Assembly (NCBI RefSeq): GCF_030538695.1
Contig: NZ_JAUNTN010000003.1
Span: 13,678 to 77,677 of the forward strand
DNA length: 64,000 nucleotides
DNA from: Paracoccus sp. (in: a-proteobacteria)
GTDB taxonomy: Bacteria; Pseudomonadota; Alphaproteobacteria; Rhodobacterales; Rhodobacteraceae
Direction of reading: 5' to 3'
A program made the position numbers and the translations under genes. Shown here in pieces: positions 14,439-64,000 of the stretch. Positions within the stretch are counted from its first letter, which is position 1. Each line of letters starts with the position of its first letter. The notes beneath the pieces are model-generated. The model was given only the letters and a program-made list of their open reading frames with translations. It was not told the DNA's origin and did not search any database.

Positions 14439-16247
14439 ATGACCCTGCCGGAAATCATGGTGCTTGGCCTGTTGGCCGCAACGATGGCACTGTTCATCTT
14501 TTCCAGTCTGCGCCATGATATTGTCGCGTTGATCGCATTGCTGGCGGCTGTGCTGATCGGGCTGGTTCCGGCGGCGGATGCATTTGCCGGGTTCTCGCAA
14601 CCGGCGGTTATCACCGTGGCCTGCGTTCTGGTGCTGTCACGGATGCTGCAACAGACAGGCGCGGTGGAAACCGTCTCGAACCGTTTGCTGCCTGCGCAGG
14701 CCGGGCGCACGGTTTCCATGTTCGCGCTGGTCGGGCTTGGGGCGTTTCTGTCGGCCTTTATGAACAATGTTGGCGCGCTGGCGCTGCTGATGCCGGTGGC
14801 AATCCGGGTGGCCGCGCGGCTGGAGATGCCCGCCGGGCAGATTCTGATGCCGCTGTCCTTTGGCACCATCCTTGGCGGCATGACCACGCTGATCGGGACG
14901 CCGCCGAACCTGATCGTGTCCGGTATCCGGGCCGAGGCGGGGCTGGGTGAATATCAGATGTTTGATCTGACCCCGGTGGGCCTGCCGGTGGCGCTGGCCG
15001 GGGTGGTGGTGCTGGTCCTGTTCGGCTGGCGTTTGGTGCCGGGACGCGACGGGGCAGGGGCCGAGGTCTCGACCGGGCTGTATCTGACCGAAGTGCGCGT
15101 GGCCGAGAAATCCACGCTGATCGGCGGCACCCTGCACGAAGCCGAGGAGCAGATTTCCGAAAGCGGCAGTCAGGTTGTCGGGCTGGTTCGCAACGGCGTG
15201 CATCTGTTTGCGCCGCGCGGCTCCCGTGCGGTGCAGGCGGGCGATATTCTGGTGGTCGAAACCGAACTGGAGGAAGTCCCCGAATTGCTTGGCAAGCTGG
15301 GTCTTGCGCTGGCCGAGGGCGAGCAGCCCCCCGCCACTGCCGAGGATCAGCCCGCCGACCCTGATGCCGAGGACACCCCCGACACCCCCAAACGCAGCGA
15401 GATCATCCTGCGCGAAGTCGTGGTCATGCCCGGCGCGGCGCTGGCCGGACGTTCGCCCCGGTCGATCCAGTTGCGCAACAACTTCAGCATCAACCTGCTG
15501 GCGCTGTCGCGCAGCGGCCATCGGCGTATCTCGCGCCTGTCCACGGCGCAGTTTCAATCCGGTGATCTGCTGCTGGTGCAGGGTGACGAATCCGCCATCG
15601 CCCGGTTTTGCAGCGATCAGGGCTGTATGCCGCTGGCGACCCGCGAAATCGACCTGCCGGACCGTGCCAATGCCCGTTGGGCGATGCTGATTATGGGCGC
15701 GGCGCTGGTGGCCGTAACGGCAGGACTGCTGCCTACGGCCATCGCCTTTCTGCTGGCGGTGGTGGCTGCTGTGGTCTTTGGTATCCTGCCTTTGCGGCAG
15801 CTTTACACCTCGATCGACTGGACGGTGGTTGTGCTGCTGGCGGCGCTGATCCCGATTGCGGGCGCGATGGAGCAGACCGGTGCCGCGGCCTCGGTCGCGA
15901 CGGCGCTGGTCGGTCATGTGGCGGGCGACAGCGTGGTGATCGGGCTGGTTCTGGTGCTGGTTCTGACCATGTTCCTGTCGGATGTGATGAACAACGCCGC
16001 CACCGCTGCCGTCATGGCCCCCATCGGGATGCAGATGGCAAACCAGCTTGGGGCCTCGGTCGATCAGTTCCTGCTGGCGGTGGCGATCGGGGCGTCCTGT
16101 GCCTTTCTGACCCCGATCGGGCATCAGAACAACACATTGATCCTTGGGCCCGGCGGCTTCCGCTTTGGTGATTACTGGAAGGCGGGGCTGTTGCTGGAAC
16201 TGGCGATTTTGCCGGTGGCAGTCATCATGCTGATGCTGGTCTGGTAG
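14439..16247 (+). CDS. SLC13/DASS-family anion permease with two central TrkA-C domains
   Basis: 602 aa; membrane halves flank a cytoplasmic segment with two TrkA-C-like repeats. Confidence 0.7.
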   Translation: MTLPEIMVLGLLAATMALFIFSSLRHDIVALIALLAAVLIGLVPAADAFAGFSQPAVITVACVLVLSRMLQQTGAVETVSNRLLPAQAGRTVSMFALVGLGAFLSAFMNNVGALALLMPVAIRVAARLEMPAGQILMPLSFGTILGGMTTLIGTPPNLIVSGIRAEAGLGEYQMFDLTPVGLPVALAGVVVLVLFGWRLVPGRDGAGAEVSTGLYLTEVRVAEKSTLIGGTLHEAEEQISESGSQVVGLVRNGVHLFAPRGSRAVQAGDILVVETELEEVPELLGKLGLALAEGEQPPATAEDQPADPDAEDTPDTPKRSEIILREVVVMPGAALAGRSPRSIQLRNNFSINLLALSRSGHRRISRLSTAQFQSGDLLLVQGDESAIARFCSDQGCMPLATREIDLPDRANARWAMLIMGAALVAVTAGLLPTAIAFLLAVVAAVVFGILPLRQLYTSIDWTVVVLLAALIPIAGAMEQTGAAASVATALVGHVAGDSVVIGLVLVLVLTMFLSDVMNNAATAAVMAPIGMQMANQLGASVDQFLLAVAIGASCAFLTPIGHQNNTLILGPGGFRFGDYWKAGLLLELAILPVAVIMLMLVW

Positions 16248-16266
16248 ATAGATTACGCGGGCAGGT

Positions 16267-16352
16267 GCCTCCGGCGGGGATATTTAAGTGAAGAAGAAAA
16301 CCCATCTTTTGTCCCCAAATATCCCCGCCGGAGGCGAAGGGGGCAAAGCCCC
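16267..16352. repeat. palindromic intergenic repeat element, copy A (perfect 18-bp arms, 31-nt loop) plus G5C-AAA-GC5 mini-hairpin
   Basis: cctccggcggggatattt (16267-16284) is the exact reverse complement of aaatatccccgccggagg (16316-16333); loop aagtgaagaagaaaacccatcttttgtcccc; gggggcaaagccccc at 16338-16352; between convergent permease and glcB. Confidence 0.8.
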
Positions 16353-16355
16353 CGC

Positions 16356-18470
16356 TTACCCCGCCTTGACCCGTCGCCGTGCTGCGTGCAGCAAAGGTTC
16401 GGTATAGCCCGAGGGCTGCGCGGCCCCTTGCAGGATCAGATCCCGTGCGGCACGGAAAGCCTCGCCGTCAAAGCCCGGTGCCATGGGGCGATAGGCCGGA
16501 TCGGCCGCGTTTTGTGCATCGACCCGCACCGCCATGCGACGCAGGCTGTCCTCGACCTGCGCTTCGGTGCAAATCCCATGCAGAAGCCAGTTGGCCAGAT
16601 GCTGCGCTGAAATCCGCAGCGTCGCACGGTCCTCCATCAGCCCGATGTCGTTGATGTCAGGCACTTTGGAACAGCCAACCCCCTGATCGACCCAACGCAC
16701 CACATAGCCAAGGATCGACTGGCAGGAATTGTCCAGCTCATGCGTGATCTGATCCGGCGTCAGGTTGCGCCCGACCATCAGCGGCGGGGTCAGCAGCGCA
16801 TCCATGCTGGCCCGCGCCCGTGATCTCAGGCCGTCCTGAACCGCCGCGACATTGACCTGGTGGTAATGCGTCGCGTGCAGCGTGGCTGCGGTGGGGGACG
16901 GCACCCATGCTGTGTTCGCCCCGGCTTGCGGATGGGTGATTTTCTGGTCCAGCATCTCGGCCATGGCGTCGGGTTTGGCCCACATGCCCTTGCCGATCTG
17001 GCCGCGCCCGGCCAGCCCGGCGGCAAGGCCGGTATCGACATTGCCGTCCTCATAGGCCGCCAGCCATGCCGCGCCGCGCATCTCGGATTTCGGCAGCACT
17101 GGCCCGGCCTGCATCGAGCTGTGGATCTCGTCCCCGGTGCGGTCCAGAAAGCCGGTGTTGATGAACACGCAGCGGTTCCGCAATGCCGCGATACAGGCGG
17201 CGAGGTTGACGCTGGTGCGGCGCTCCTCGTCCATCAGGCCCAGTTTCACGGTGTTTTCCGGCAGGCCAAGCACCTGTTCGACCCGACCATACAGGCGGTC
17301 GGCAAAAGCCGCCTCGGTGGGGCCGTGCATCTTGGGCTTGACGACATAGACCGAACCGGCGCGGCTGTTGCGCGGACCATCCTTGGACAGATCGTGCATG
17401 GCGGCGGCGACTGTCACCATCGCATCCATGATCCCTTCCGGCGTGTCCTGCCCGTCCAGACGCACCGCATCGGTCAGCATCAGATGGCCCACGTTGCGCA
17501 CCAGCAGCAGGGCGCGGCCCGGATGTGTCACCGGCTGGCCCTGCGGGTCCAGATAGGTGACGTCAGGGTTCAGGGCGCGGGTCATTTCTGCACCATTCTT
17601 GGTGAATGTATCGGTCAGGTCGCCCCGCATCAGCCCCAGCCAGTTGCGATAGACGACAACCTTATCGGCAGCATCCACGGCGGCGACGGAATCTTCGGCA
17701 TCCTGAATCGCGGTCAGGGCGCTTTCCAGACGAATATCGGCAATCCCTGCCGGATCGTCGCGTCCGATGGTGCTGGCGCGGTCCACGACAATACGGATCA
17801 GCAGCCCGTTTACCCGCAGGAACACATCGCCCGTATCGGTATAGCCCGCGAATTGCGCCGGGTCCGCCAGCCCGGTTTCGCCGCCCGCATCAATCAGCAG
17901 CACACCGTCCGAGACTTGCATCTTTGTCACATCGGCCCAGCTTCCCCCGGCCAGGGGGGTCACCCGGTCCAGATGCGCCCGGCCCCATGCAATGACTTGC
18001 GCCCCCCGCGTGGGGTCATAGCCCGGCGCGGCCTGCCCCGGTATCGCATCGGTGCCGTAAAGTGCGTCATAAAGGCTGCCCCAACGCGCATTGGCGGCGT
18101 TCAGCGCGAACCGTGCGTTCATCACCGGCACCACAAGCTGAGGCCCGGCGATGCTGGCGATTTCCGGGTCCACATGGGTGGTTTCCACCTGAAACGGCGC
18201 AGGTTCGGGTTCCAGATAGCTGATCTCTGTCAGGAAGGCGCGGTAAGCCTGCGGCTCAAAGGCGTTGTTGCGGTGCCAATCGTCGATCTGCGCCTGCAAT
18301 TCCGCCCGCCGTGCCAGAAGCGCCGCATTTTCCGGCATCAGATCCCGCAGCAGCGCGGCATAGCCTGACCAGAAGGCATCGGCGGAAACGCCGGTCAGCA
18401 CCTCGTTTTCGACCAGATCGGCGAGTTCAGCGGCGACGCTCAGCCCCGCGCGGTTGACATAATCGGTCAT
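16356..18470 (-). CDS. glcB: malate synthase G
   Basis: 704 aa, [12 protein letters not shown] start typical of GlcB; full-length malate synthase G family. Confidence 0.9.
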
Positions 18471-25099: not shown

Positions 25100-25402
25100 A
25101 TGAATCTGACCCCCCGCGAAAAGGACAAGCTGCTGGTGGCGCTGGCCGCCATGATCGCCCGCGACCGCCGCGCCCGAGGCGTCAAGCTGAACCATCCCGA
25201 AGCCATTGCCATCATCACCGATGCGGTGGTCGAAGGCGCTCGGGACGGGCGCAGCGTGGCCGATCTGATGCAGGCCGGGGCCGAAATCCTGCGGGCCGAG
25301 GATTGTATGCCCGGCATCCCGGACATGATCCCCGAAATCCAGATCGAGGCCACCTTTCCCGATGGCACCAAGCTCGTCACCGTTCACCACCCGATCCGAT
25401 AA
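25100..25402 (+). CDS. ureA: urease gamma subunit
   Basis: 100 aa, [13 protein letters not shown]...HHPIR canonical UreA. Confidence 0.95.
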
Positions 25403-25411
25403 GGCGCTGAT

Positions 25412-25960
25412 ATGAAAAACCTGTTCATCCTTCTGACCCTGCTGCCCTCTGCCGCGCTGGCGCATCCGGGCCATGACACCGGCGCGCCTTTCATGGCGGG
25501 TCTGAACCACCCGCTTGGCGGCACCGATCACCTGCTGGCGATGGTGGCGGTCGGCCTTTGGGCGGCACTTGCCGGAGGCCGTGCCATCTGGGCCATGCCG
25601 CTGACCTTTGTTGCGGCGATGCTGGCAGGTGGGGCCTTGGGGGCTGTGGGCATGACCCTGCCGCTGGTGGAGCCGCTGATCCTTGCCTCATCCATCATCA
25701 TCGGTGCGGCGGTGGCGCTGGCCCTGCGGCCCTCACTGGCGGCAACCCTGCCGCTGGTGGCGCTGTTCGGTCTGGCGCATGGCTTTGCTCATGGGGCTGA
25801 AGGCCCGGCCACCGGCCTGGTCGCCTATGCCGCAGGCTTTGCGCTGGCGACCGCATTGCTGCACCTTGCAGGCATCGGGCTTGGCCGCTTTGGCCTGACT
25901 GCCACCCGTCTGCTGGGCGCGGCAACCATGGCAGCGGGTCTTGCACTTGGCTTTGCATGA
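25412..25960 (+). CDS. ureJ: HupE/UreJ-family nickel transporter
   Basis: 182 aa; signal peptide then HPGHD motif; 6 TM; inserted between ureA and ureB. Confidence 0.8.
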   Translation: MKNLFILLTLLPSAALAHPGHDTGAPFMAGLNHPLGGTDHLLAMVAVGLWAALAGGRAIWAMPLTFVAAMLAGGALGAVGMTLPLVEPLILASSIIIGAAVALALRPSLAATLPLVALFGLAHGFAHGAEGPATGLVAYAAGFALATALLHLAGIGLGRFGLTATRLLGAATMAAGLALGFA

Positions 25961-25973
25961 TTTTCGACGCCGC

Positions 25974-26085
25974 AGGGGGCTTTGCCCCCTCGGGCTGACG
26001 CCCTCACCCCCAGGATATTGAGGTGAAGAAGAATGGGCATCTTTTGTCCCTAAATATCCCCGGGGGTCCGGGGGCTGGCCCCCGG
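25974..26085. repeat. palindromic intergenic repeat element, copy B (imperfect arms, same conserved loop), flanked by two GC mini-hairpins
   Basis: agggggctttgccccct (25974-25990); arms cccccaggatatt (26007-26019) / aaatatccccggggg (26052-26066) around loop gaggtgaagaagaatgggcatcttttgtccct; ccgggggctggcccccgg (26068-26085). Confidence 0.75.
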
Positions 26086-26112: not shown

Positions 26113-26418
26113 ATGATCCCCGGCGAAATCATTCCCGCTGACGGCGACATCACCCTGAACCAAGGCCGCCCGCAGATTACCCTGACCGTGGCTAATACCG
26201 GCGACCGCCCGGTTCAGGTTGGCAGCCATTACCACTTTGCCGAAACCAACCCGGCGCTGGATTTTGATCGTCGGGCCGCGCATGGGCATCGGCTGAACAT
26301 CCCCGCAGGCACGGCGATCCGGTTCGAGCCGGGCCAGACCCGGGACGTGCCGCTGATCCCCTTTTCCGGGGAGCGCCGCGCCATTGGCTTTCGCGCCGCC
26401 GTCATGGGGGATTTGTAA
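26113..26418 (+). CDS. ureB: urease beta subunit
   Basis: [19 protein letters not shown] canonical UreB start with AAGGAA SD; the upstream in-frame GTG extension (26023) lies inside the repeat and is rejected. Confidence 0.9.
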
Positions 26419-28100
26419 TGGTCAGCCTGTCCCGCGCCGATTACGCCGCGATTTACGGCCCCACCACTGGCGACTGCATCCGTCTTGCCGATACCGACCT
26501 GCTGATCGAGGTTGAGCGCGACCTGACCACCTATGGCGAGGAGGTCAAGTTCGGTGGCGGCAAGGTCATCCGCGACGGTATGGGGCAGTCGCAGAAATCC
26601 CGTGCCGAAGGTGCGATGGATACCGTCATCACCAACGCGCTGATCGTGGATGCGACGGGTATCTACAAGGCCGATGTCGGCCTGCGCGATGGGCGCATTG
26701 CAGCCATCGGCAAGGCGGGTAACCCTGATACACAGCCCGCCGTCACCGTGCTGATCGGGCCGGGAACCGAGATCATCGCGGGCGAGGGTCGCATCCTGAC
26801 CGCCGGTGCGATGGATGCGCATATCCATTACATCTGCCCGCAGCAGGTCAATGACGCGCTGCATTCCGGCGTGACCACCATGCTTGGCGGCGGCACCGGC
26901 CCGGCGCATGGTACGCTGGCCACCACCTGCACGCCGGGGCCGTGGCATATCCACCGCATGATGCAGGCCGCCGACAGCCTGCCGATGAATCTTGCGTTTG
27001 CGGGCAAGGGCAATGCCAGCCTGCCTGCCGCGCTGGAGGAACAGATCCGTGCCGGAGCCTGTGCGCTGAAGCTGCATGAGGACTGGGGGACCACCCCCGC
27101 CGCCATCGACTGTTGCCTGACCGTGGCCGACCGCCACGACATTCAGGTGATGATCCATACCGATACGCTGAACGAATCCGGCTTTGTCGAGGACACCATC
27201 CGCGCCATCAACGGTCGCACTATCCACGCCTTTCACACCGAAGGCGCGGGCGGCGGCCATGCGCCGGACATCATTCGGGTGGCGGGGCTGGCGAATGTGA
27301 TCCCGTCGTCCACCAACCCGACCCGTCCCTTCACCGTGAACACGATGGAGGAGCATCTGGACATGCTGATGGTCTGTCATCACCTTGACCGCGCCATCCC
27401 CGAGGACATCGCCTTTGCCGAATCCCGTATCCGGCGCGAGACCATCGCGGCCGAGGACATCCTGCACGACCTTGGGGCCATGTCGATCATCAGCAGCGAC
27501 AGTCAGGCGATGGGCCGCGTGGGCGAGGTGCTGATCCGCACATGGCAGACCGCGCATAAGATGCGGGGCCAGCGCGGCAAGCTGGGGGACGGCCCGGCGG
27601 ATAATTTCCGCGTCCGCCGCTATATTGCGAAATACACCATCAACCCGGCAATTGCGCATGGTATCGGCCATGAAATCGGCACTATCGAGGTTGGCAAACG
27701 TGCTGATCTGGTGCTGTGGAACCCGGCGTTTTTCGGGGTGAAGCCGGAAATGGTGCTGCTTGGCGGCATGGTGGCCATGGCGCAAATGGGCGATCCGAAT
27801 GCCTCTATCCCGACGCCGCAGCCGGTCCACTCGCGCCCGATGTTCGGGGCTTTGGGCCGGGCGCTGCACGCCAGCGCGGTGACATTCACCAGCGCCGGGG
27901 CCGATCTGCCTGAGCTGTCGAAAGCCTGCGTCGCGGTGAAAAACACCCGCAACATCGGCAAGGCCGATATGATGCTGAACGACGCTACGCCCGATATTAC
28001 CGTGGACCCTGAAACCTATGAAGTCCGCGCCGATGGCGAATTGCTGACCTGTGAACCAGCCAGCGAATTGCCGATGGCGCAACGCTATTTCCTGTTCTGA
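26418..28100 (+). CDS. ureC: urease alpha subunit
   Basis: 560 aa; amidohydrolase nickel-site HxH/KCX region ([12 protein letters not shown], ...HEDWG); TAATG overlap with ureB. Confidence 0.95.
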
Positions 28101-40485: not shown

Positions 40486-41913
40486 ATGTATCTGGGAATC
40501 GACCTCGGCACATCCGGGGTCAAGGTGCTGCTGATGGACGCGGACCAGCGCATCATCGCATCCGCAACCGCCGCGCTGACGGTGCAGCGCCCCCATTCCG
40601 GCTGGTCGGAACAGAACCCCGCCGACTGGATCAGCGCGACCCGTGCCGCTATGGCAGAACTGCGCGGTCAGCACGATCTGGGCGCGGTCGCCGGGATCGG
40701 CCTGTCCGGCCAGATGCACGGCGCGGTCACGTTGGATGCTGCCGATCAGGTGATCCGCCCGGCGATCCTGTGGAACGACACCCGCAGCCACGCGCAGGCA
40801 GCAACGCTGGACGCCGACCCCGATTTCCGCGCGATCAGCGGCAATATTGTCTTTCCGGGCTTTACCGCGCCGAAGCTGGTCTGGATGGCCGAAAACGAAC
40901 CGGACGCTTTTGCCCGCGTGGCCAAGGTGCTGCTGCCCAAGGATTACCTGCGCCTGTGGCTGACCGGCGAGCATGTCGCGGAAATGTCGGATGCGGCGGG
41001 GACAAGCTGGCTGGATACCGGCGCGCGGGAATGGTCGGACCGGCTGCTGGCGGCGTCAGGGATGCGCCGCGACCAGATGCCCACGCTGATCGAGGGTAAC
41101 GCGGTCTCCGGCACTCTTCGGGCGGAACTGGTCGCCGACTGGGGCATGTCGCCGGGCGTGGTCGTCGCGGGCGGTGCAGGCGATAACGCCGCCACCGCCA
41201 TCGGCGCGGGGACGGTTGCGGCGGGGCAGGGCTTTGTCAGCCTTGGCACCTCGGGCGTGCTGTTTGCCGCGACCGACCGTTACCTGCCGCGCCCCGAAAG
41301 CGCCGTTCACGCCTTTTGCCACGCCTTGCCCGGCATGTGGCACCAGATGGGCGTGATCCTGTCGGCATCCGCCGCGATGGAATGGTTCGCCACCATCACC
41401 GGCGCGCGCCCGGCGGATCTGACGGCGGCACTTGGCCCGCTGCAAGCGCCGGGGCCGGTGACGTTCCTGCCCTATCTGTCGGGCGAACGCACGCCGCATA
41501 ACGATGCCGGCATCCGCGCCAGCTTTCACGGGCTGTCCGCACGCAGCGACCGTGCCGCCCTGACCCGCGCCGTGCTGGAAGGCGTCGCTTTTGCGCTGGC
41601 CGATAACCTCGACGCGCTGCGGGCGGCGGGGTCTGATCCACAGGCACTGTTGGCGCTTGGCGGCGGGGCGCGGTCGGATTACTGGCTGGTGGCGATTGCC
41701 ACCGCGCTGGATATTCCGGTTCTGGTTCCCGAAAGCGGCGATTTCGGCGCGGCATTCGGCGCGGCGCGGCTGGGGCTGATGGCGGCCACCGGGGCGGACC
41801 CGGCGCAGGTCTGCACCCCGCCCAGGATCGCTGCCGAGATCACGCCCGATCCCGCCCTGCGCCCGGCCTTTGCCGAGGCTCTGGGACGTTTTCGTGGTCT
41901 TTATCGCGCATAA
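40486..41913 (+). CDS. xylB: xylulokinase (FGGY carbohydrate kinase)
   Basis: 475 aa; MYLGIDLGTSGVKV N-terminus; FGGY family. Confidence 0.8.
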   Translation: MYLGIDLGTSGVKVLLMDADQRIIASATAALTVQRPHSGWSEQNPADWISATRAAMAELRGQHDLGAVAGIGLSGQMHGAVTLDAADQVIRPAILWNDTRSHAQAATLDADPDFRAISGNIVFPGFTAPKLVWMAENEPDAFARVAKVLLPKDYLRLWLTGEHVAEMSDAAGTSWLDTGAREWSDRLLAASGMRRDQMPTLIEGNAVSGTLRAELVADWGMSPGVVVAGGAGDNAATAIGAGTVAAGQGFVSLGTSGVLFAATDRYLPRPESAVHAFCHALPGMWHQMGVILSASAAMEWFATITGARPADLTAALGPLQAPGPVTFLPYLSGERTPHNDAGIRASFHGLSARSDRAALTRAVLEGVAFALADNLDALRAAGSDPQALLALGGGARSDYWLVAIATALDIPVLVPESGDFGAAFGAARLGLMAATGADPAQVCTPPRIAAEITPDPALRPAFAEALGRFRGLYRA

Positions 41914-41914
41914 T

Positions 41915-41945
41915 ATCTTTTGTCCTCAAATATCCCCGCCGGAGG
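41915..41945. repeat. half copy (right half) of the palindromic repeat element, copy C
   Basis: atcttttgtcctcaaatatccccgccggagg matches copy A positions 16303-16333 with 1 mismatch; starts 2 nt after the xylB stop. Confidence 0.75.
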
Positions 41946-41988
41946 CTCCTGCCCGCGCAGCAGGGCGATGGGTGGGGGAAAGGGTGCC

Positions 41989-61847: not shown

Positions 61848-63140
61848 TTAATCAATGCCCCGGCTCATCGGCCAGTATGTCAGCGCCAGTGGCACCGGGC
61901 TTGTGACGGTGATCCCCTGCGTCGCAGCAGGGGGATAGATGCGGGCGCTGATGGCGATTTCGCCGTCGCCCGCAAAGATTTCCACGCTCGAATGATCCGC
62001 CAGCACCCGCAGGCGGCACCCTTGGTCCGGGGTTAACGCGGCGTCAGCCAGCAGAGTTTCGCCTTCATACAGGGTTATTGCACCATTGCCGACCCGCAGC
62101 GTCGCATGGTCGCGGATGGTCAGCACCAGCGGTGCATCCGCCTGCACCAGCAGATCAAAGGCCCGTGCGTCAGGGATGCTCAGAGCATCGCCCGCCAGTT
62201 GGGTTTCCGGGCCGCGCAGCGCCGCCAGTTCCGCCACCGGCTGTTGCAGCAACCGGCCGTCGCGCAGGTGCAATTCCCGCGGCACCGTCAGACAGTGGAA
62301 CCAGCCATGGGCGACGCTTGGCGCGGTTTCCTGTTCCGGCAGGCCCATCCAGCCCAGCATGATCCGCCGCCCGTCCGGGTGCGCAAATGTCTGTGGCGCG
62401 TAAAAGTCGCGGCCATGATCCAGCCGCTGAAACGGGCCGTGGTCATAACCCGCCGAGGCCAGATCAACCCGGCCTGTGACATAGCCCGCCAGATTGCTGC
62501 CGGGGCGTTGCTCGGAAAACAGCAAGACATCGCTGCCGTCCAGCGCGAACAGGTCGGGACATTCGCACATATAGCCGTGATTGCCCGGCGTCAGCAGTTG
62601 CCCTGACAGCTCCCAATGGGTCAGGTCGGGGCTGTGCAGCAGGATGACGGTGCCTTGTTCAGTCTCGGTCTGGACGCCAAGCACCATCCGCCATGCGCCG
62701 TCCTGATACCACAGCTTCGGGTCACGGAAATGCGCCGTATAGCCGGGCAGGGGGCCGCTGATGACCGGGCCGTTTTTGGTAAATGCCACCCCATCTGCGG
62801 ACCGGGCAAGGCATTGATAGGTTTGACGGTTGCCGTCCTGATCCTTGACGTTGCCGGTATAGATCAGGGTCAGCCCGTCCGCATCCACCGCGCTGCCGGA
62901 ATAGCAGCCGTTCTTGTCAAACCAGTCGGTCGGGCCAATCGCGGCGGACAGGCGCTGCCAATGCGCCAGATCGGCGCTTGCGACATGGCCCCAGTGTTTG
63001 TTGCTATGGGTGCAGCCCGAGGGGTTCCACTGATAGAACACATGCGTCTGGCCGTTCCAGTGGATCAGCCCGTTCGGGTCATTCACCAGCCCTTGCGGGG
63101 CGCTGATGTGGAAGGCTTGTCGCCAGGGATCGTGTGTCAT
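61848..63140 (-). CDS. glycoside hydrolase family 32, sucrose-6-phosphate hydrolase-like (no signal peptide)
   Basis: GH32 N-terminal catalytic motif NDPNG, RDP, EC motifs; 430 aa. Confidence 0.8.
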   Translation of the reverse strand: MTHDPWRQAFHISAPQGLVNDPNGLIHWNGQTHVFYQWNPSGCTHSNKHWGHVASADLAHWQRLSAAIGPTDWFDKNGCYSGSAVDADGLTLIYTGNVKDQDGNRQTYQCLARSADGVAFTKNGPVISGPLPGYTAHFRDPKLWYQDGAWRMVLGVQTETEQGTVILLHSPDLTHWELSGQLLTPGNHGYMCECPDLFALDGSDVLLFSEQRPGSNLAGYVTGRVDLASAGYDHGPFQRLDHGRDFYAPQTFAHPDGRRIMLGWMGLPEQETAPSVAHGWFHCLTVPRELHLRDGRLLQQPVAELAALRGPETQLAGDALSIPDARAFDLLVQADAPLVLTIRDHATLRVGNGAITLYEGETLLADAALTPDQGCRLRVLADHSSVEIFAGDGEIAISARIYPPAATQGITVTSPVPLALTYWPMSRGID

Positions 63141-63192
63141 GGCTGGCCCTCTTGTGGCTGGCGGCGGGGGCGTGGCCGCCCCCGTCCGTTGT

Positions 63193-64000
63193 TCAGGCTT
63201 GCTTGGCCTTCGGTCCGGTCAGGGCGAACAGGTAAGACCCCACGCAGGCCACGCCAAAGGCAATCGCCATGCCGATGATATAGTTCAGCATCGAGGCGGG
63301 CTGCACGATGGCGATGCCGGGCACCCCGGTCACGCCCACCGCCGTCATGCCGACTTTGGTCGCCACGACATAGGCACCGCCGACCGCGCCACCGACAGCA
63401 GCCGCAAAGAAGGCGCGGATAAAGCGCAGGTTGATGCCGAACAGCGCGGCCTCGGTGATGCCCAGCAGGCAGGACAGCGAGGCGGGCAGGGCGATCTGGC
63501 GCACCTTCTGGTCATCGCTGCGCAGGAACACGCCAAGCGCCGCGCCGCCCTGCGCCACGTTTGCCATGGCCCAAATCGGCAGCAGGAAGTTCACCGCAAT
63601 CGCAGGATTGGCCAGCAGGCCCGCCTCGATTGCGTGGAAGCTGTGGTGAACGCCGGTAATGACGATGGCGGAATACAGCCCGCCGAACACCAGACCCGCC
63701 AGCGGCCCACCGACGTTATACAGCCATTGCAGCCCGAACGAGATGCCATCGCCCAAGCCCCGGCCCAGCGGTCCCAGCACCATCAGCGCGAAAAACGCCG
63801 AGATCAGTAGCGTCAGGAACGGCGTCAGCACGATGTCCAGCATATCCGGCACCACGCGGCGGACGGCACGGTTGACGTAGGACATGACCCAGACGGCAAT
63901 CAGGATCGGCAGCACCGTTCCCTGATAGCCAAGCTGCGCGACCTGCATCCCGAACAGATCCCAATATTCGCTGACGCCGCCGCCCACGGTCCAGGCGTTT
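63193..64000 (-). CDS. PTS EIIC (glucose/sucrose-family EIIBC, C-terminal part; 5' end outside window)
   Basis: Polytopic Glc-family EIIC sequence; frame continues past the window end. Confidence 0.7.
   Translation of the reverse strand, partial: NAWTVGGGVSEYWDLFGMQVAQLGYQGTVLPILIAVWVMSYVNRAVRRVVPDMLDIVLTPFLTLLISAFFALMVLGPLGRGLGDGISFGLQWLYNVGGPLAGLVFGGLYSAIVITGVHHSFHAIEAGLLANPAIAVNFLLPIWAMANVAQGGAALGVFLRSDDQKVRQIALPASLSCLLGITEAALFGINLRFIRAFFAAAVGGAVGGAYVVATKVGMTAVGVTGVPGIAIVQPASMLNYIIGMAIAFGVACVGSYLFALTGPKAKQA

Follow-up and report, generated by a model that had tools for sequence, protein, structure and literature searches.

A 64,000-nucleotide stretch of the Paracoccus sp. assembly GCF_030538695.1 (contig NZ_JAUNTN010000003.1, positions 13,678 to 77,677; hereafter the window) carries at 16267-16335 a perfect inverted repeat, copy A, that appears to belong to a modular mosaic family of short intergenic repeats. 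By their arrangement these resemble the bacterial interspersed mosaic elements (BIMEs) and repetitive extragenic palindromic (REP) sequences. The basic repeating element of the family is half of the hairpin, an asymmetric unit of 31-32 nt, and not the hairpin itself; copy A is a tail-to-tail doublet of such units. We put the probability of this reading at roughly 0.6. The family is apparently undescribed: a literature survey on Rhodobacterales REP sequences, REP-associated tyrosine transposases (RAYTs), MITEs (miniature inverted-repeat transposable elements), mosaic elements, and the unit sequence returned nothing matching within its incomplete coverage.

The unit reads tTCTTTTGTCC-NN-AAATATCCCCGCCGGAGGC. 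Over 46 copies from other genomes, the information profile rises steeply at TCTTTT, drops beyond GGAGGC, and leaves two central positions unconstrained; when the box AAATATCCCCGCCGGAGGC alone is held fixed, the arm proves far looser (tTC.TCTT..C). We interpret the unit as a putative three-part structure, in which a variable, pyrimidine-rich arm of ~10 nt starting with tTC would be joined through 2-3 free nucleotides to the box and its close variants. Subfamilies share only the core TCTTYTGTSY-NN-AAATAYYC: in type 2, the outer arm CCCCGGGGG... runs on into GGGGG-TCC and a G5C-N-GC5 hairpin, and type 3 (TCTTCTGTGC-NN-AAATACTCA) is without the GC-rich tail. A G5C-N3-GC5 hairpin stands beside type 2 arms at many other loci and is itself a module of the family; the window contains four G5C...GC5 hairpins against 0.24 expected, three of which adjoin copies A and B. 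In the copies from Paracoccus metagenome-assembled genomes (MAGs) (L001-L041; L numbers denote loci here), a CCCGCGC box follows 5-14 nt past GGAGGC. The modules of such a mosaic would comprise the several outer-arm types, the G5C-N3-GC5 hairpin, an AT-rich head-to-head linker, and the CCCGCGC box. The stop codon of the gene reading towards the unit in these Paracoccus loci often lies 26-29 nt from GGAGGC, just past the CCCGCGC box.

Copy A consists of two type 1 units. The left unit (16267-16297, minus strand) reads TCTTCTTCAC-TT-AAATATCCCCGCCGGAGGC and departs from the unit consensus at four positions, each of them within the variable arm, and the right unit (16305-16335, plus strand) reads TCTTTTGTCC-CC-AAATATCCCCGCCGGAGGC and equals the consensus of the 46 copies exactly; a 7-nt spacer, aaaccca (16298-16304), separates the two. 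Directly after the GGAGGC of the left unit, an extension box (16256-16266, minus strand) reads ACCTGCCCGCG. The arms of the inverted repeat, GCCTCCGGCGGGGATATTT (16267-16285) and AAATATCCCCGCCGGAGGC (16317-16335), are 19 nt long and 100% complementary. The first-pass annotation of the window had already recognized the perfect pairing and the 31 nt between the arms, both of which stand, but gave the arms as 18 bp and placed them one nucleotide off: those 18-mers lie at 16268-16285 and 16317-16334. The G5C-AAA-GC5 mini-hairpin described beside the repeat is likewise present, at 16339-16353 and not 16338-16352, and 2 nt separate this GGGGGC-AAA-GCCCCC module from the stop codon of malate synthase G. 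The idea of a stem around a conserved loop under its own constraint found no support: the "loop" is made of the inner 10-12 nt of both units (GTGAAGAAGA and TCTTTTGTCC), the free dinucleotides, and the 7-nt spacer, and most copies elsewhere have no partner arm.

As originally noted, copy A lies between convergent genes, where it fills part of the 108-nt gap between a CitMHS/TrkA_C transporter gene (14439-16247, plus strand) and that of malate synthase G (16356-18470, minus strand). Its predicted RNA fold reaches -56.6 kcal/mol (z -6.45) on the plus strand and -59.8 kcal/mol (z -6.3) on the minus strand. This malate synthase G is 100% identical to a protein recorded from a Paracoccus sp. MAG, the kind of genome that the window comes from, and 80% identical to its next relative. 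In P. jiaweipingae, P. endophyticus, and P. contaminans, other neighbors and no unit are found downstream of the malate synthase G gene. The short open reading frames (ORFs) proposed within the element are without support. Coding potential of the unit was rejected on terminase-portal spacer sequences read by eye, in which the ATG/TCAT inside the arm yields no conserved peptide.

Copies B and C proved to be real, with 26013-26062 86% identical to 16278-16327 and 41915-41946 97% identical to 16304-16335. A 23-nt pattern allowing up to three mismatches hits exactly three sites in the window and none in 100 shuffles, and no unit beyond copies A, B, and C was found in the 64 kb; the earlier count of three copies is correct for loci, at which there are five units. 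Copy B is the same doublet as copy A with other outer arms. Its left unit (26007-26032, minus strand) has the inner arm GTGAAGAAGA of the copy A left unit and a type 2 outer arm, CCCCCAGGATATT; its spacer, atgggca (26033-26039), is again 7 nt long and unlike that of copy A in sequence; and its right unit, of type 2 (26040-26069, plus strand), reads TCTTTTGTCC-CT-AAATATCCCC-GGGGGTCC, with an outer arm also found in L004, L006, L028, L039, and L205. The loop is more conserved than the stem between copies A and B because they are copies of one doublet, with the asymmetric inner 50 nt in common and different outer-arm types. Hairpin modules occur upstream of copy B (GGGGGC-TTT-GCCCCC, 25975-25989) and directly after it (GGGGGC-TG-GCCCCC, 26070-26083). 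The doublet lies between ureJ (25412-25960) and ureB (26113-26418), inside the urease operon ureA-ureJ-ureB-ureC. The urease genes are here split by the HupE/UreJ gene (ureA, 25100-25402; ureC, 26418-28100), and the copy B doublet, together with GC hairpins on both sides of it, fills the 152-nt ureJ-ureB spacer. Copy C (41916-41946, plus strand) consists of one solo type 1 unit, TCTTTTGTCC-TC-AAATATCCCCGCCGGAGGC, with no partner arm; it starts 2 nt past the stop of an FGGY kinase gene (40486-41913), and 42 nt separate its end from a LysR gene (41989). It shares with the left unit of copy A 11 more nucleotides past GGAGGC (A/TCCTGCCCGCG), its own extension box (41947-41957, plus strand) reading TCCTGCCCGCG and being near-identical to that beside copy A. 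The fold of copy B is weaker (z -2.35) and that of copy C unremarkable (z -0.53).

The unit is widespread in Rhodobacterales. A first scan, with one genome per species and TCTTTTGTCCNNAAATATCCCC as the query, returned 41 loci, nearly all in Paracoccus and other Paracoccaceae MAGs and all in Rhodobacterales or an unclassified alphaproteobacterial MAG; about 30 exact matches came from a single Paracoccus MAG, and most of the copies at the 41 loci have no left arm at all. Later scans, with the box AAATATCCCCGCCGGAGGC alone, matched at least 120 metagenome contigs and 43 IMG/VR contigs. By BLAST, the box also occurs, never annotated, on plasmids or chromids of Paracoccus pantotrophus, P. versutus, P. 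ferrooxidans, P. yeei, Ruegeria sp. TM1040, R. pomeroyi DSS-3, Tritonibacter, Leisingera, Phaeobacter, Roseobacter litoralis, and Salipiger, and on a plasmid in a derivative strain of Cereibacter sphaeroides 2.4.1. Every taxonomically labeled match with a meaningful E-value belongs to Rhodobacterales. The proposal of a genome-wide dispersed element is borne out by copies that occur genome-wide and order-wide, noncoding, between genes and near stop codons, and searching relatives for the element yielded further copies conserved across the order. On Sinorhizobium megaplasmids (H49-H52), there are marginal 24-nt matches to the box region (22/24, E about 1), which may reflect chance or related Rhizobiales repeats.

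Most units stand alone. Among 220 distinct units, 176 are solo, 26 belong to head-to-head pairs, and 18 belong to tail-to-tail pairs. In head-to-head pairs the box ends face each other 13-33 nt apart, often across an AT-rich linker of 13-14 nt such as ATAAAAGTTTTCTT, giving doublets of ~75-80 nt with 31-nt inverted ends; tail-to-tail doublets mostly pair a type 1 arm with one of type 2 or type 3. Degenerate partner arms were also looked for in a sensitive search, which confirmed that most solo units are truly solo: the clear doublets account for the 15% of right and 8% of left flanks that score at least 13/19, and the complementarity of the other flanks to the box does not exceed that of random DNA. 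P. jiaweipingae, which is the closest named relative, carries a tail-to-tail doublet of type 2, with the arm variant TTCATCTTGG, between a PhoD gene and a glyoxalase gene (L205, 1581-1660).

Gene context in related loci was called with a gene caller based on third-codon-position GC content and is to be read as a proxy. For 191 units both neighbors were called, the gene pairs being tandem for 122 units (67 in one orientation and 55 in the opposite one), convergent for 54, and divergent for 15. Compared with spacers of the same loci (68/17/15% tandem/convergent/divergent), units are enriched between convergent genes (chi-square P = 3.6e-5). They lie nearer the stop codon of the upstream gene in either orientation, with no orientation bias, and only a few of the 191 overlap a predicted gene end. 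Units also occur inside operons, namely between ureJ and ureB (copy B), between gcvH and gcvP of Phaeobacter, and in terminase-portal spacers.

The terminase-portal setting predominates among the IMG/VR contigs: about 33 of the 43 matches lie between a large terminase gene and a portal gene in phage-like clusters of ~14 kb (L162, 1445-1475, and about 30 others among L163-L204; the setting recurs in L208-L287), which by our inference look like gene-transfer-agent clusters. Portal and terminase genes form the only large, recurrent clusters among the neighbors of units. The units there are mostly oriented with GCCUCC... in the mRNA, usually 56-130 nt upstream of a GAGGAG-type ribosome-binding site. 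When 77 terminase-portal spacers were gathered through the portal protein alone, ~14 contained a recognizable unit (4 with the exact box), 1 contained a visibly decayed unit, and ~60 contained none. Not more than 150 nt away from type 1 units, there is a second conserved box, GGCCATCGGCGTCCCCGCCTGTWCCGC, in L044 (3690-3775, plus strand), L004 (846-865), and L013 (6251-6270), as well as in L040 (as a variant), L076, L106, L109, L118, and L153. It is preceded by a hairpin and an arm identical or near-identical to the lineage's own arm variant; on the opposite strand the arrangement reads ACAGGCGGGGACGCCGATGGCC-GT-(arm complement)-hairpin-T run, and the G·U pairs in L044 fit that strand. No Rfam family matches the second box, which could be a hitherto unknown small RNA or leader.

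The evolutionary behavior of the units combines a fixed box with a drifting arm. In three orthologous locus pairs from different species, the 31-nt unit is identical save at the two free positions, and the surrounding spacer is no longer alignable. The motif itself served to find the two members of every pair, which introduces an ascertainment bias; 29 of 29 identical positions in otherwise saturated DNA nevertheless call for constraint or homogenization. One of these pairs has 435 nt inserted between the unit and the left-hand gene, with the unit staying beside its GGAGGC-side flank. The type 3 arm of two Paracoccus species is TCTTCTGTGC in 10 of 10 copies versus TCTTCTGCGC/T in 3 of 3, one nucleotide apart in every copy, and the unusual arms ACCAGTTTC and TCCAAATTG recur at different loci apparently of one lineage. 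Per 10 positions, arms differ by 1.6 inside a doublet, by 3.4 when loci on the same contig are compared, and by 5.0 across contigs. Variation of the arm sequence with lineage implies continuing copying or homogenization. In the 11-bp outer helix of 17 head-to-head doublets, 42 cells are changed on both sides versus 18.1 in shuffles, with 9 of 11 pairs covarying; the three nucleotides beside the box pair no more than unconstrained sequence does (0.31, 0.06, and 0.44). We rejected this covariation as proof of a selected RNA or DNA structure, as it is confounded by the lineage-specific arm variants.

Signs of a particular copying mechanism were sought in several ways. No target-site duplication of 2-8 bp was found at any tested boundary, the best case among 900 boundary-by-length combinations being a 2-mer with 33 matches versus 20.7 expected over 215 units, and no transposase family recurs among the genes directly flanking units. 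Closely related sites could be compared at a few loci. Plasmids of three P. yeei strains (L290, 2150-2620; L291; L292) all carry a unit downstream of purU, the units differing only by two substitutions in the free or arm part, and a 79-nt indel lies ~100 nt off, outside the unit. Between Phaeobacter DOK1-1 and strain 2.10, the entire gcvH-gcvP spacer differs, and the nearest discordant terminase-portal pairs are only ~85% identical.

Known regulatory classes did not account for the element either. No intrinsic terminator is predicted on either strand at copy A (16248-16355), and no U tract follows its hairpin; a canonical terminator is not what the sequence holds here, and copy B and many other units sit inside operons, which argues against an efficient terminator. 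The T-rich arm of type 1 units was considered as the U tract of a preceding hairpin and rejected, abutting hairpins being found at 28% versus 29% for random positions; the U-tract arrangement does hold in some doublets with a GC-hairpin spacer (L015, L020, L031, and L039) and for the second box. At the GGAGGC end, abutting hairpins show a moderate enrichment (42% versus 29% random). A small hairpin formed by the box and its 3' flank was not supported either: its -7.1 kcal/mol compares with -6.9 and -7.7 kcal/mol for shuffled and random flanks. A promoter reading was rejected as well: no sigma-70-like site is predicted at copy A, the hexamer spacings are by inspection unlike known sigma-factor consensus sequences, and two thirds of units face a gene end. 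Checking Rfam, as had been proposed, gave no match at the element in the window and 10 related loci at the gathering threshold, and in E-value mode only generic microRNA-precursor hairpin models appeared, far below threshold.

Units found at scores of unrelated sites and too information-rich for repeated point mutation were copied. The absence of duplications, the extragenic sites at gene ends in both orientations, the coexistence of solos with doublets of two polarities, the unit types and linkers, and the lineage variants place them with the REP/BIME kind and away from MITEs. The initial label of a REP/MITE-like repeat thus came close to the mark. The data show units that were copied to many unrelated intergenic sites without target-site duplication, that stand solo or in head-to-head or tail-to-tail pairs, and that gather at stop codons, especially in convergent gaps, in either orientation. 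We propose that copying or homogenization would go on within lineages, presumably with a trans-acting factor behind it. The two transcripts that converge on copy A would finish in a 69-nt hairpin of ~-57 kcal/mol next to the small GC hairpin. This predicted hairpin probably hinders 3' exonucleases, or serves as a weak damper of read-through or an insulator, rather than as an intrinsic terminator.

Several observations weigh against this reading. A search with E. coli RayT (100% identical to annotated rayT) found no RAYT homolog at E <2 in 1.5 Mb of unit-bearing DNA or in any Rhodobacterales record in PLSDB, the main chromosomes lying outside the scan, and no clean pair of filled and empty sites that would prove insertion was found among the relatives compared. 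Unlike REP sequences, one unit by itself forms no palindrome. Genera of two families have the 19-nt box in identical form, as do orthologous sites with decayed flanks, a conservation that exceeds expectation for a repeat that is purely selfish and points to constraint at the level of the host or of a machinery. The role suggested for copy A at transcript ends, moreover, is drawn from predicted folding alone. As the unit is not palindromic, has no GTAG/CGTC tag, occurs predominantly as solos, and has no RAYT found with it, we do not count it as a member of the REP sequences or of the REP doublets known as REPINs.

The main rival, which we consider unlikely, is that the unit is a double-stranded DNA recognition site for a conserved Rhodobacterales protein, selected at gene ends, with doublets representing two sites. 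The recognizing factor might be a nucleoid-associated protein or a gyrase/topoisomerase, or the site might be a signal like the DNA uptake sequences (DUS) and uptake signal sequences (USS), spread by biased uptake or recombination. A protein site would fit the lack of orientation bias relative to flanking genes, the invariance of the box across many genera, the 2-3 free middle nucleotides expected of a bipartite site, the retention of units at orthologous sites while flanks decay, the lineage arm variants reminiscent of DUS dialects, the enrichment between convergent genes, where supercoiling stress builds up, and the absence of a transposase or RAYT from the DNA searched. A unit of more than 45 bits cannot, however, arise repeatedly by point mutation, and a copying process is needed anyway. 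The density is low (three loci per 64 kb) and nearly all units lie outside predicted genes, whereas uptake signals recur about once per kb, also inside genes; presence at orthologous sites is patchy, as in the ~14 of 77 terminase-portal spacers, and no candidate protein is known. We find it quite improbable, more so than a protein site, that the functional entity is the RNA hairpin (a structured 3' untranslated region [UTR], a small RNA [sRNA], an RNase III/E site, or a protein-recognized terminator) and that solos are decayed relics of it. The exceptional stability of copy A, the covariation in the outer helix of the 17 head-to-head doublets, and the location of units in UTRs near stop codons are what such a role would lead one to expect, but that covariation is confounded as described above, and about 78% of copies are true solos with an intact consensus, also where they occupy orthologous positions in separate species. 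Head-to-head and tail-to-tail doublets nest the same two stems in opposite orders, which fits inverted DNA repeats better than one RNA structure; tail-to-tail doublets often join outer-arm types unable to pair; and copy A has neither a U tract after its hairpin nor an Rfam match.

Two further explanations are much less probable than these. A classical MITE, that is, a deletion derivative of an insertion sequence (IS) moved by a DDE transposase, would have units as its terminal inverted repeats and solos as half-elements. The ~75-80-nt head-to-head doublets, with their 31-nt inverted ends and conserved AT-rich center of 13-14 nt, resemble such an element, as do the many near-identical copies per genome; yet no 2-8-bp duplication flanks the tested boundaries, solos far outnumber doublets, doublets come in both polarities, and genes flanking units include no recurrent transposase. 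The only MITE reported in Paracoccus, MITEPye1, is unrelated (PMC11578231). Equally doubtful is an action on translation, in which GGAGG would serve as a decoy or standby Shine-Dalgarno sequence or CCUCC would mask the ribosome-binding site of the next gene (ureB or portal). The box does hold GGAGG and, in its complement, CCUCC; the terminase-portal units are mostly CCUCC-oriented at the distance from the GAGGAG-type site given above; and units in tandem pairs of genes often lie 30-100 nt upstream of the next start codon. Tandem spacers nevertheless contain both orientations equally often, 28% of units fall in convergent gaps with no downstream start codon, and type 3 units have multiplied without the GGAGG part. 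A further and quite unlikely reading is that the box and the lineage's 10-nt arm form the signal of a conserved Rhodobacterales machinery, a protein or a guide RNA, that copies or homogenizes units without RAYT or DDE transposase. Such machinery may be tied to the gene-transfer-agent-like clusters, where the unit lies between the terminase and portal genes, and the second box ACAGGCGGGGACGCCGATGGCC with the arm complement and terminator is a possible trans-acting RNA.

Two other features of the window were recorded alongside the units. Rfam reports a full-length match to 5_ureB_sRNA (106.9 bits) at 26567-26856 on the minus strand, inside the urease alpha-subunit gene (26418-28100, plus strand), which is probably conserved coding sequence shared with the Helicobacter gene that the family overlaps and not a Paracoccus antisense RNA. 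The fourth G5C...GC5 hairpin, GGGGGCGTGGCCGCCCCC (63166-63183), adjoins no unit and sits at the overlap of the ends of two predicted minus-strand ORFs (61848-63218 and 63193-63999).

The Rhodobacterales include the major marine roseobacters and the models Paracoccus denitrificans, Cereibacter sphaeroides, and Ruegeria pomeroyi. A catalogue of units would improve annotation, explain many "conserved" intergenic hairpins, flag sites of assembly or recombination artifacts, and supply strain-typing markers, as REP-PCR does. A REP-like system with a nonpalindromic unit, no RAYT found, a core fixed order-wide, and an arm drifting by lineage offers a tractable case for studying how repeats persist and are copied, and the operon-internal copies (urease, glycine cleavage, and terminase-portal) make polarity effects within operons directly testable. 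If the unlikely reading of box and arm as the signal of a copying machinery is true, the units would represent a new kind of host-maintained genomic signal and not a REP or MITE variant.

Several known systems invite comparison. DUS are 10-12 nt long and USS have a 9-nt core in a ~30-nt consensus; both recur about once per kb and are common inside genes. The units share with them independence of orientation, frequent inverted pairs downstream of genes, a family-wide distribution with lineage "dialects," the lack of a transposase, and a mostly single occurrence. They differ in being longer, ~20 times rarer by these generally known figures, and nearly all outside predicted genes, the window holding three loci in 64 kb, none of them inside a gene. 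We know of no sequence-specific DNA uptake in Rhodobacterales. The Rhizobium-specific intergenic mosaic elements (RIMEs) of Rhizobiales are alphaproteobacterial intergenic mosaic repeats of palindromic modules; we liken the units to them by description only, with just the marginal 24-nt Sinorhizobium matches (E about 1) on the side of sequence. MITEs such as the Correia elements of Neisseria and MITEPye1 of Paracoccus yeei are, like the units, small, nonautonomous, and intergenic, with long hairpins cotranscribed with neighbors. They have IS-related terminal inverted repeats and target-site duplications, as in the 159-bp MITEPye1 with its IS1182-type ends and 4-bp duplications (PMC11578231), whereas the units show no duplication and no parent IS was found for them, and they are mostly half-elements.

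The REPIN-RAYT system of Bertels and Rainey is closer, with inverted doublets around a short spacer, populations of a master sequence in each genome, lineage variants, vertical persistence, and no target-site duplication. REPIN theory holds that the doublet is the replicating entity and singlets are its decaying remnants (PMC3116915, PMC5581495); here, by contrast, solos are the majority and have a perfect consensus, doublets occur in both polarities, and no RAYT was detected near ~220 units or on Rhodobacterales plasmids or chromids. One end of REP sequences carries a conserved tetranucleotide, GTAG or CGTC (PMC3733652), and the unit consensus tTCTTTTGTCCNNAAATATCCCCGCCGGAGGC contains neither on either strand. 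The BIMEs of Escherichia coli and its relatives, built from REP sequences, differ in their unrelated sequence, and the unit described here is nonpalindromic, without the GTAG/CGTC tag and with no RAYT found. REP sequences also usually differ between species, whereas one 19-nt box is here common to a whole order. BIMEs are likewise short, noncoding extragenic repeats at gene ends and in operons, in single or alternating orientation; their Y and Z unit types compare with types 1, 2, and 3, and both systems use distinct head-to-head and tail-to-tail linkers. The likeness extends to hundreds of copies, the lack of target duplication, and hairpins able to stabilize upstream mRNA.

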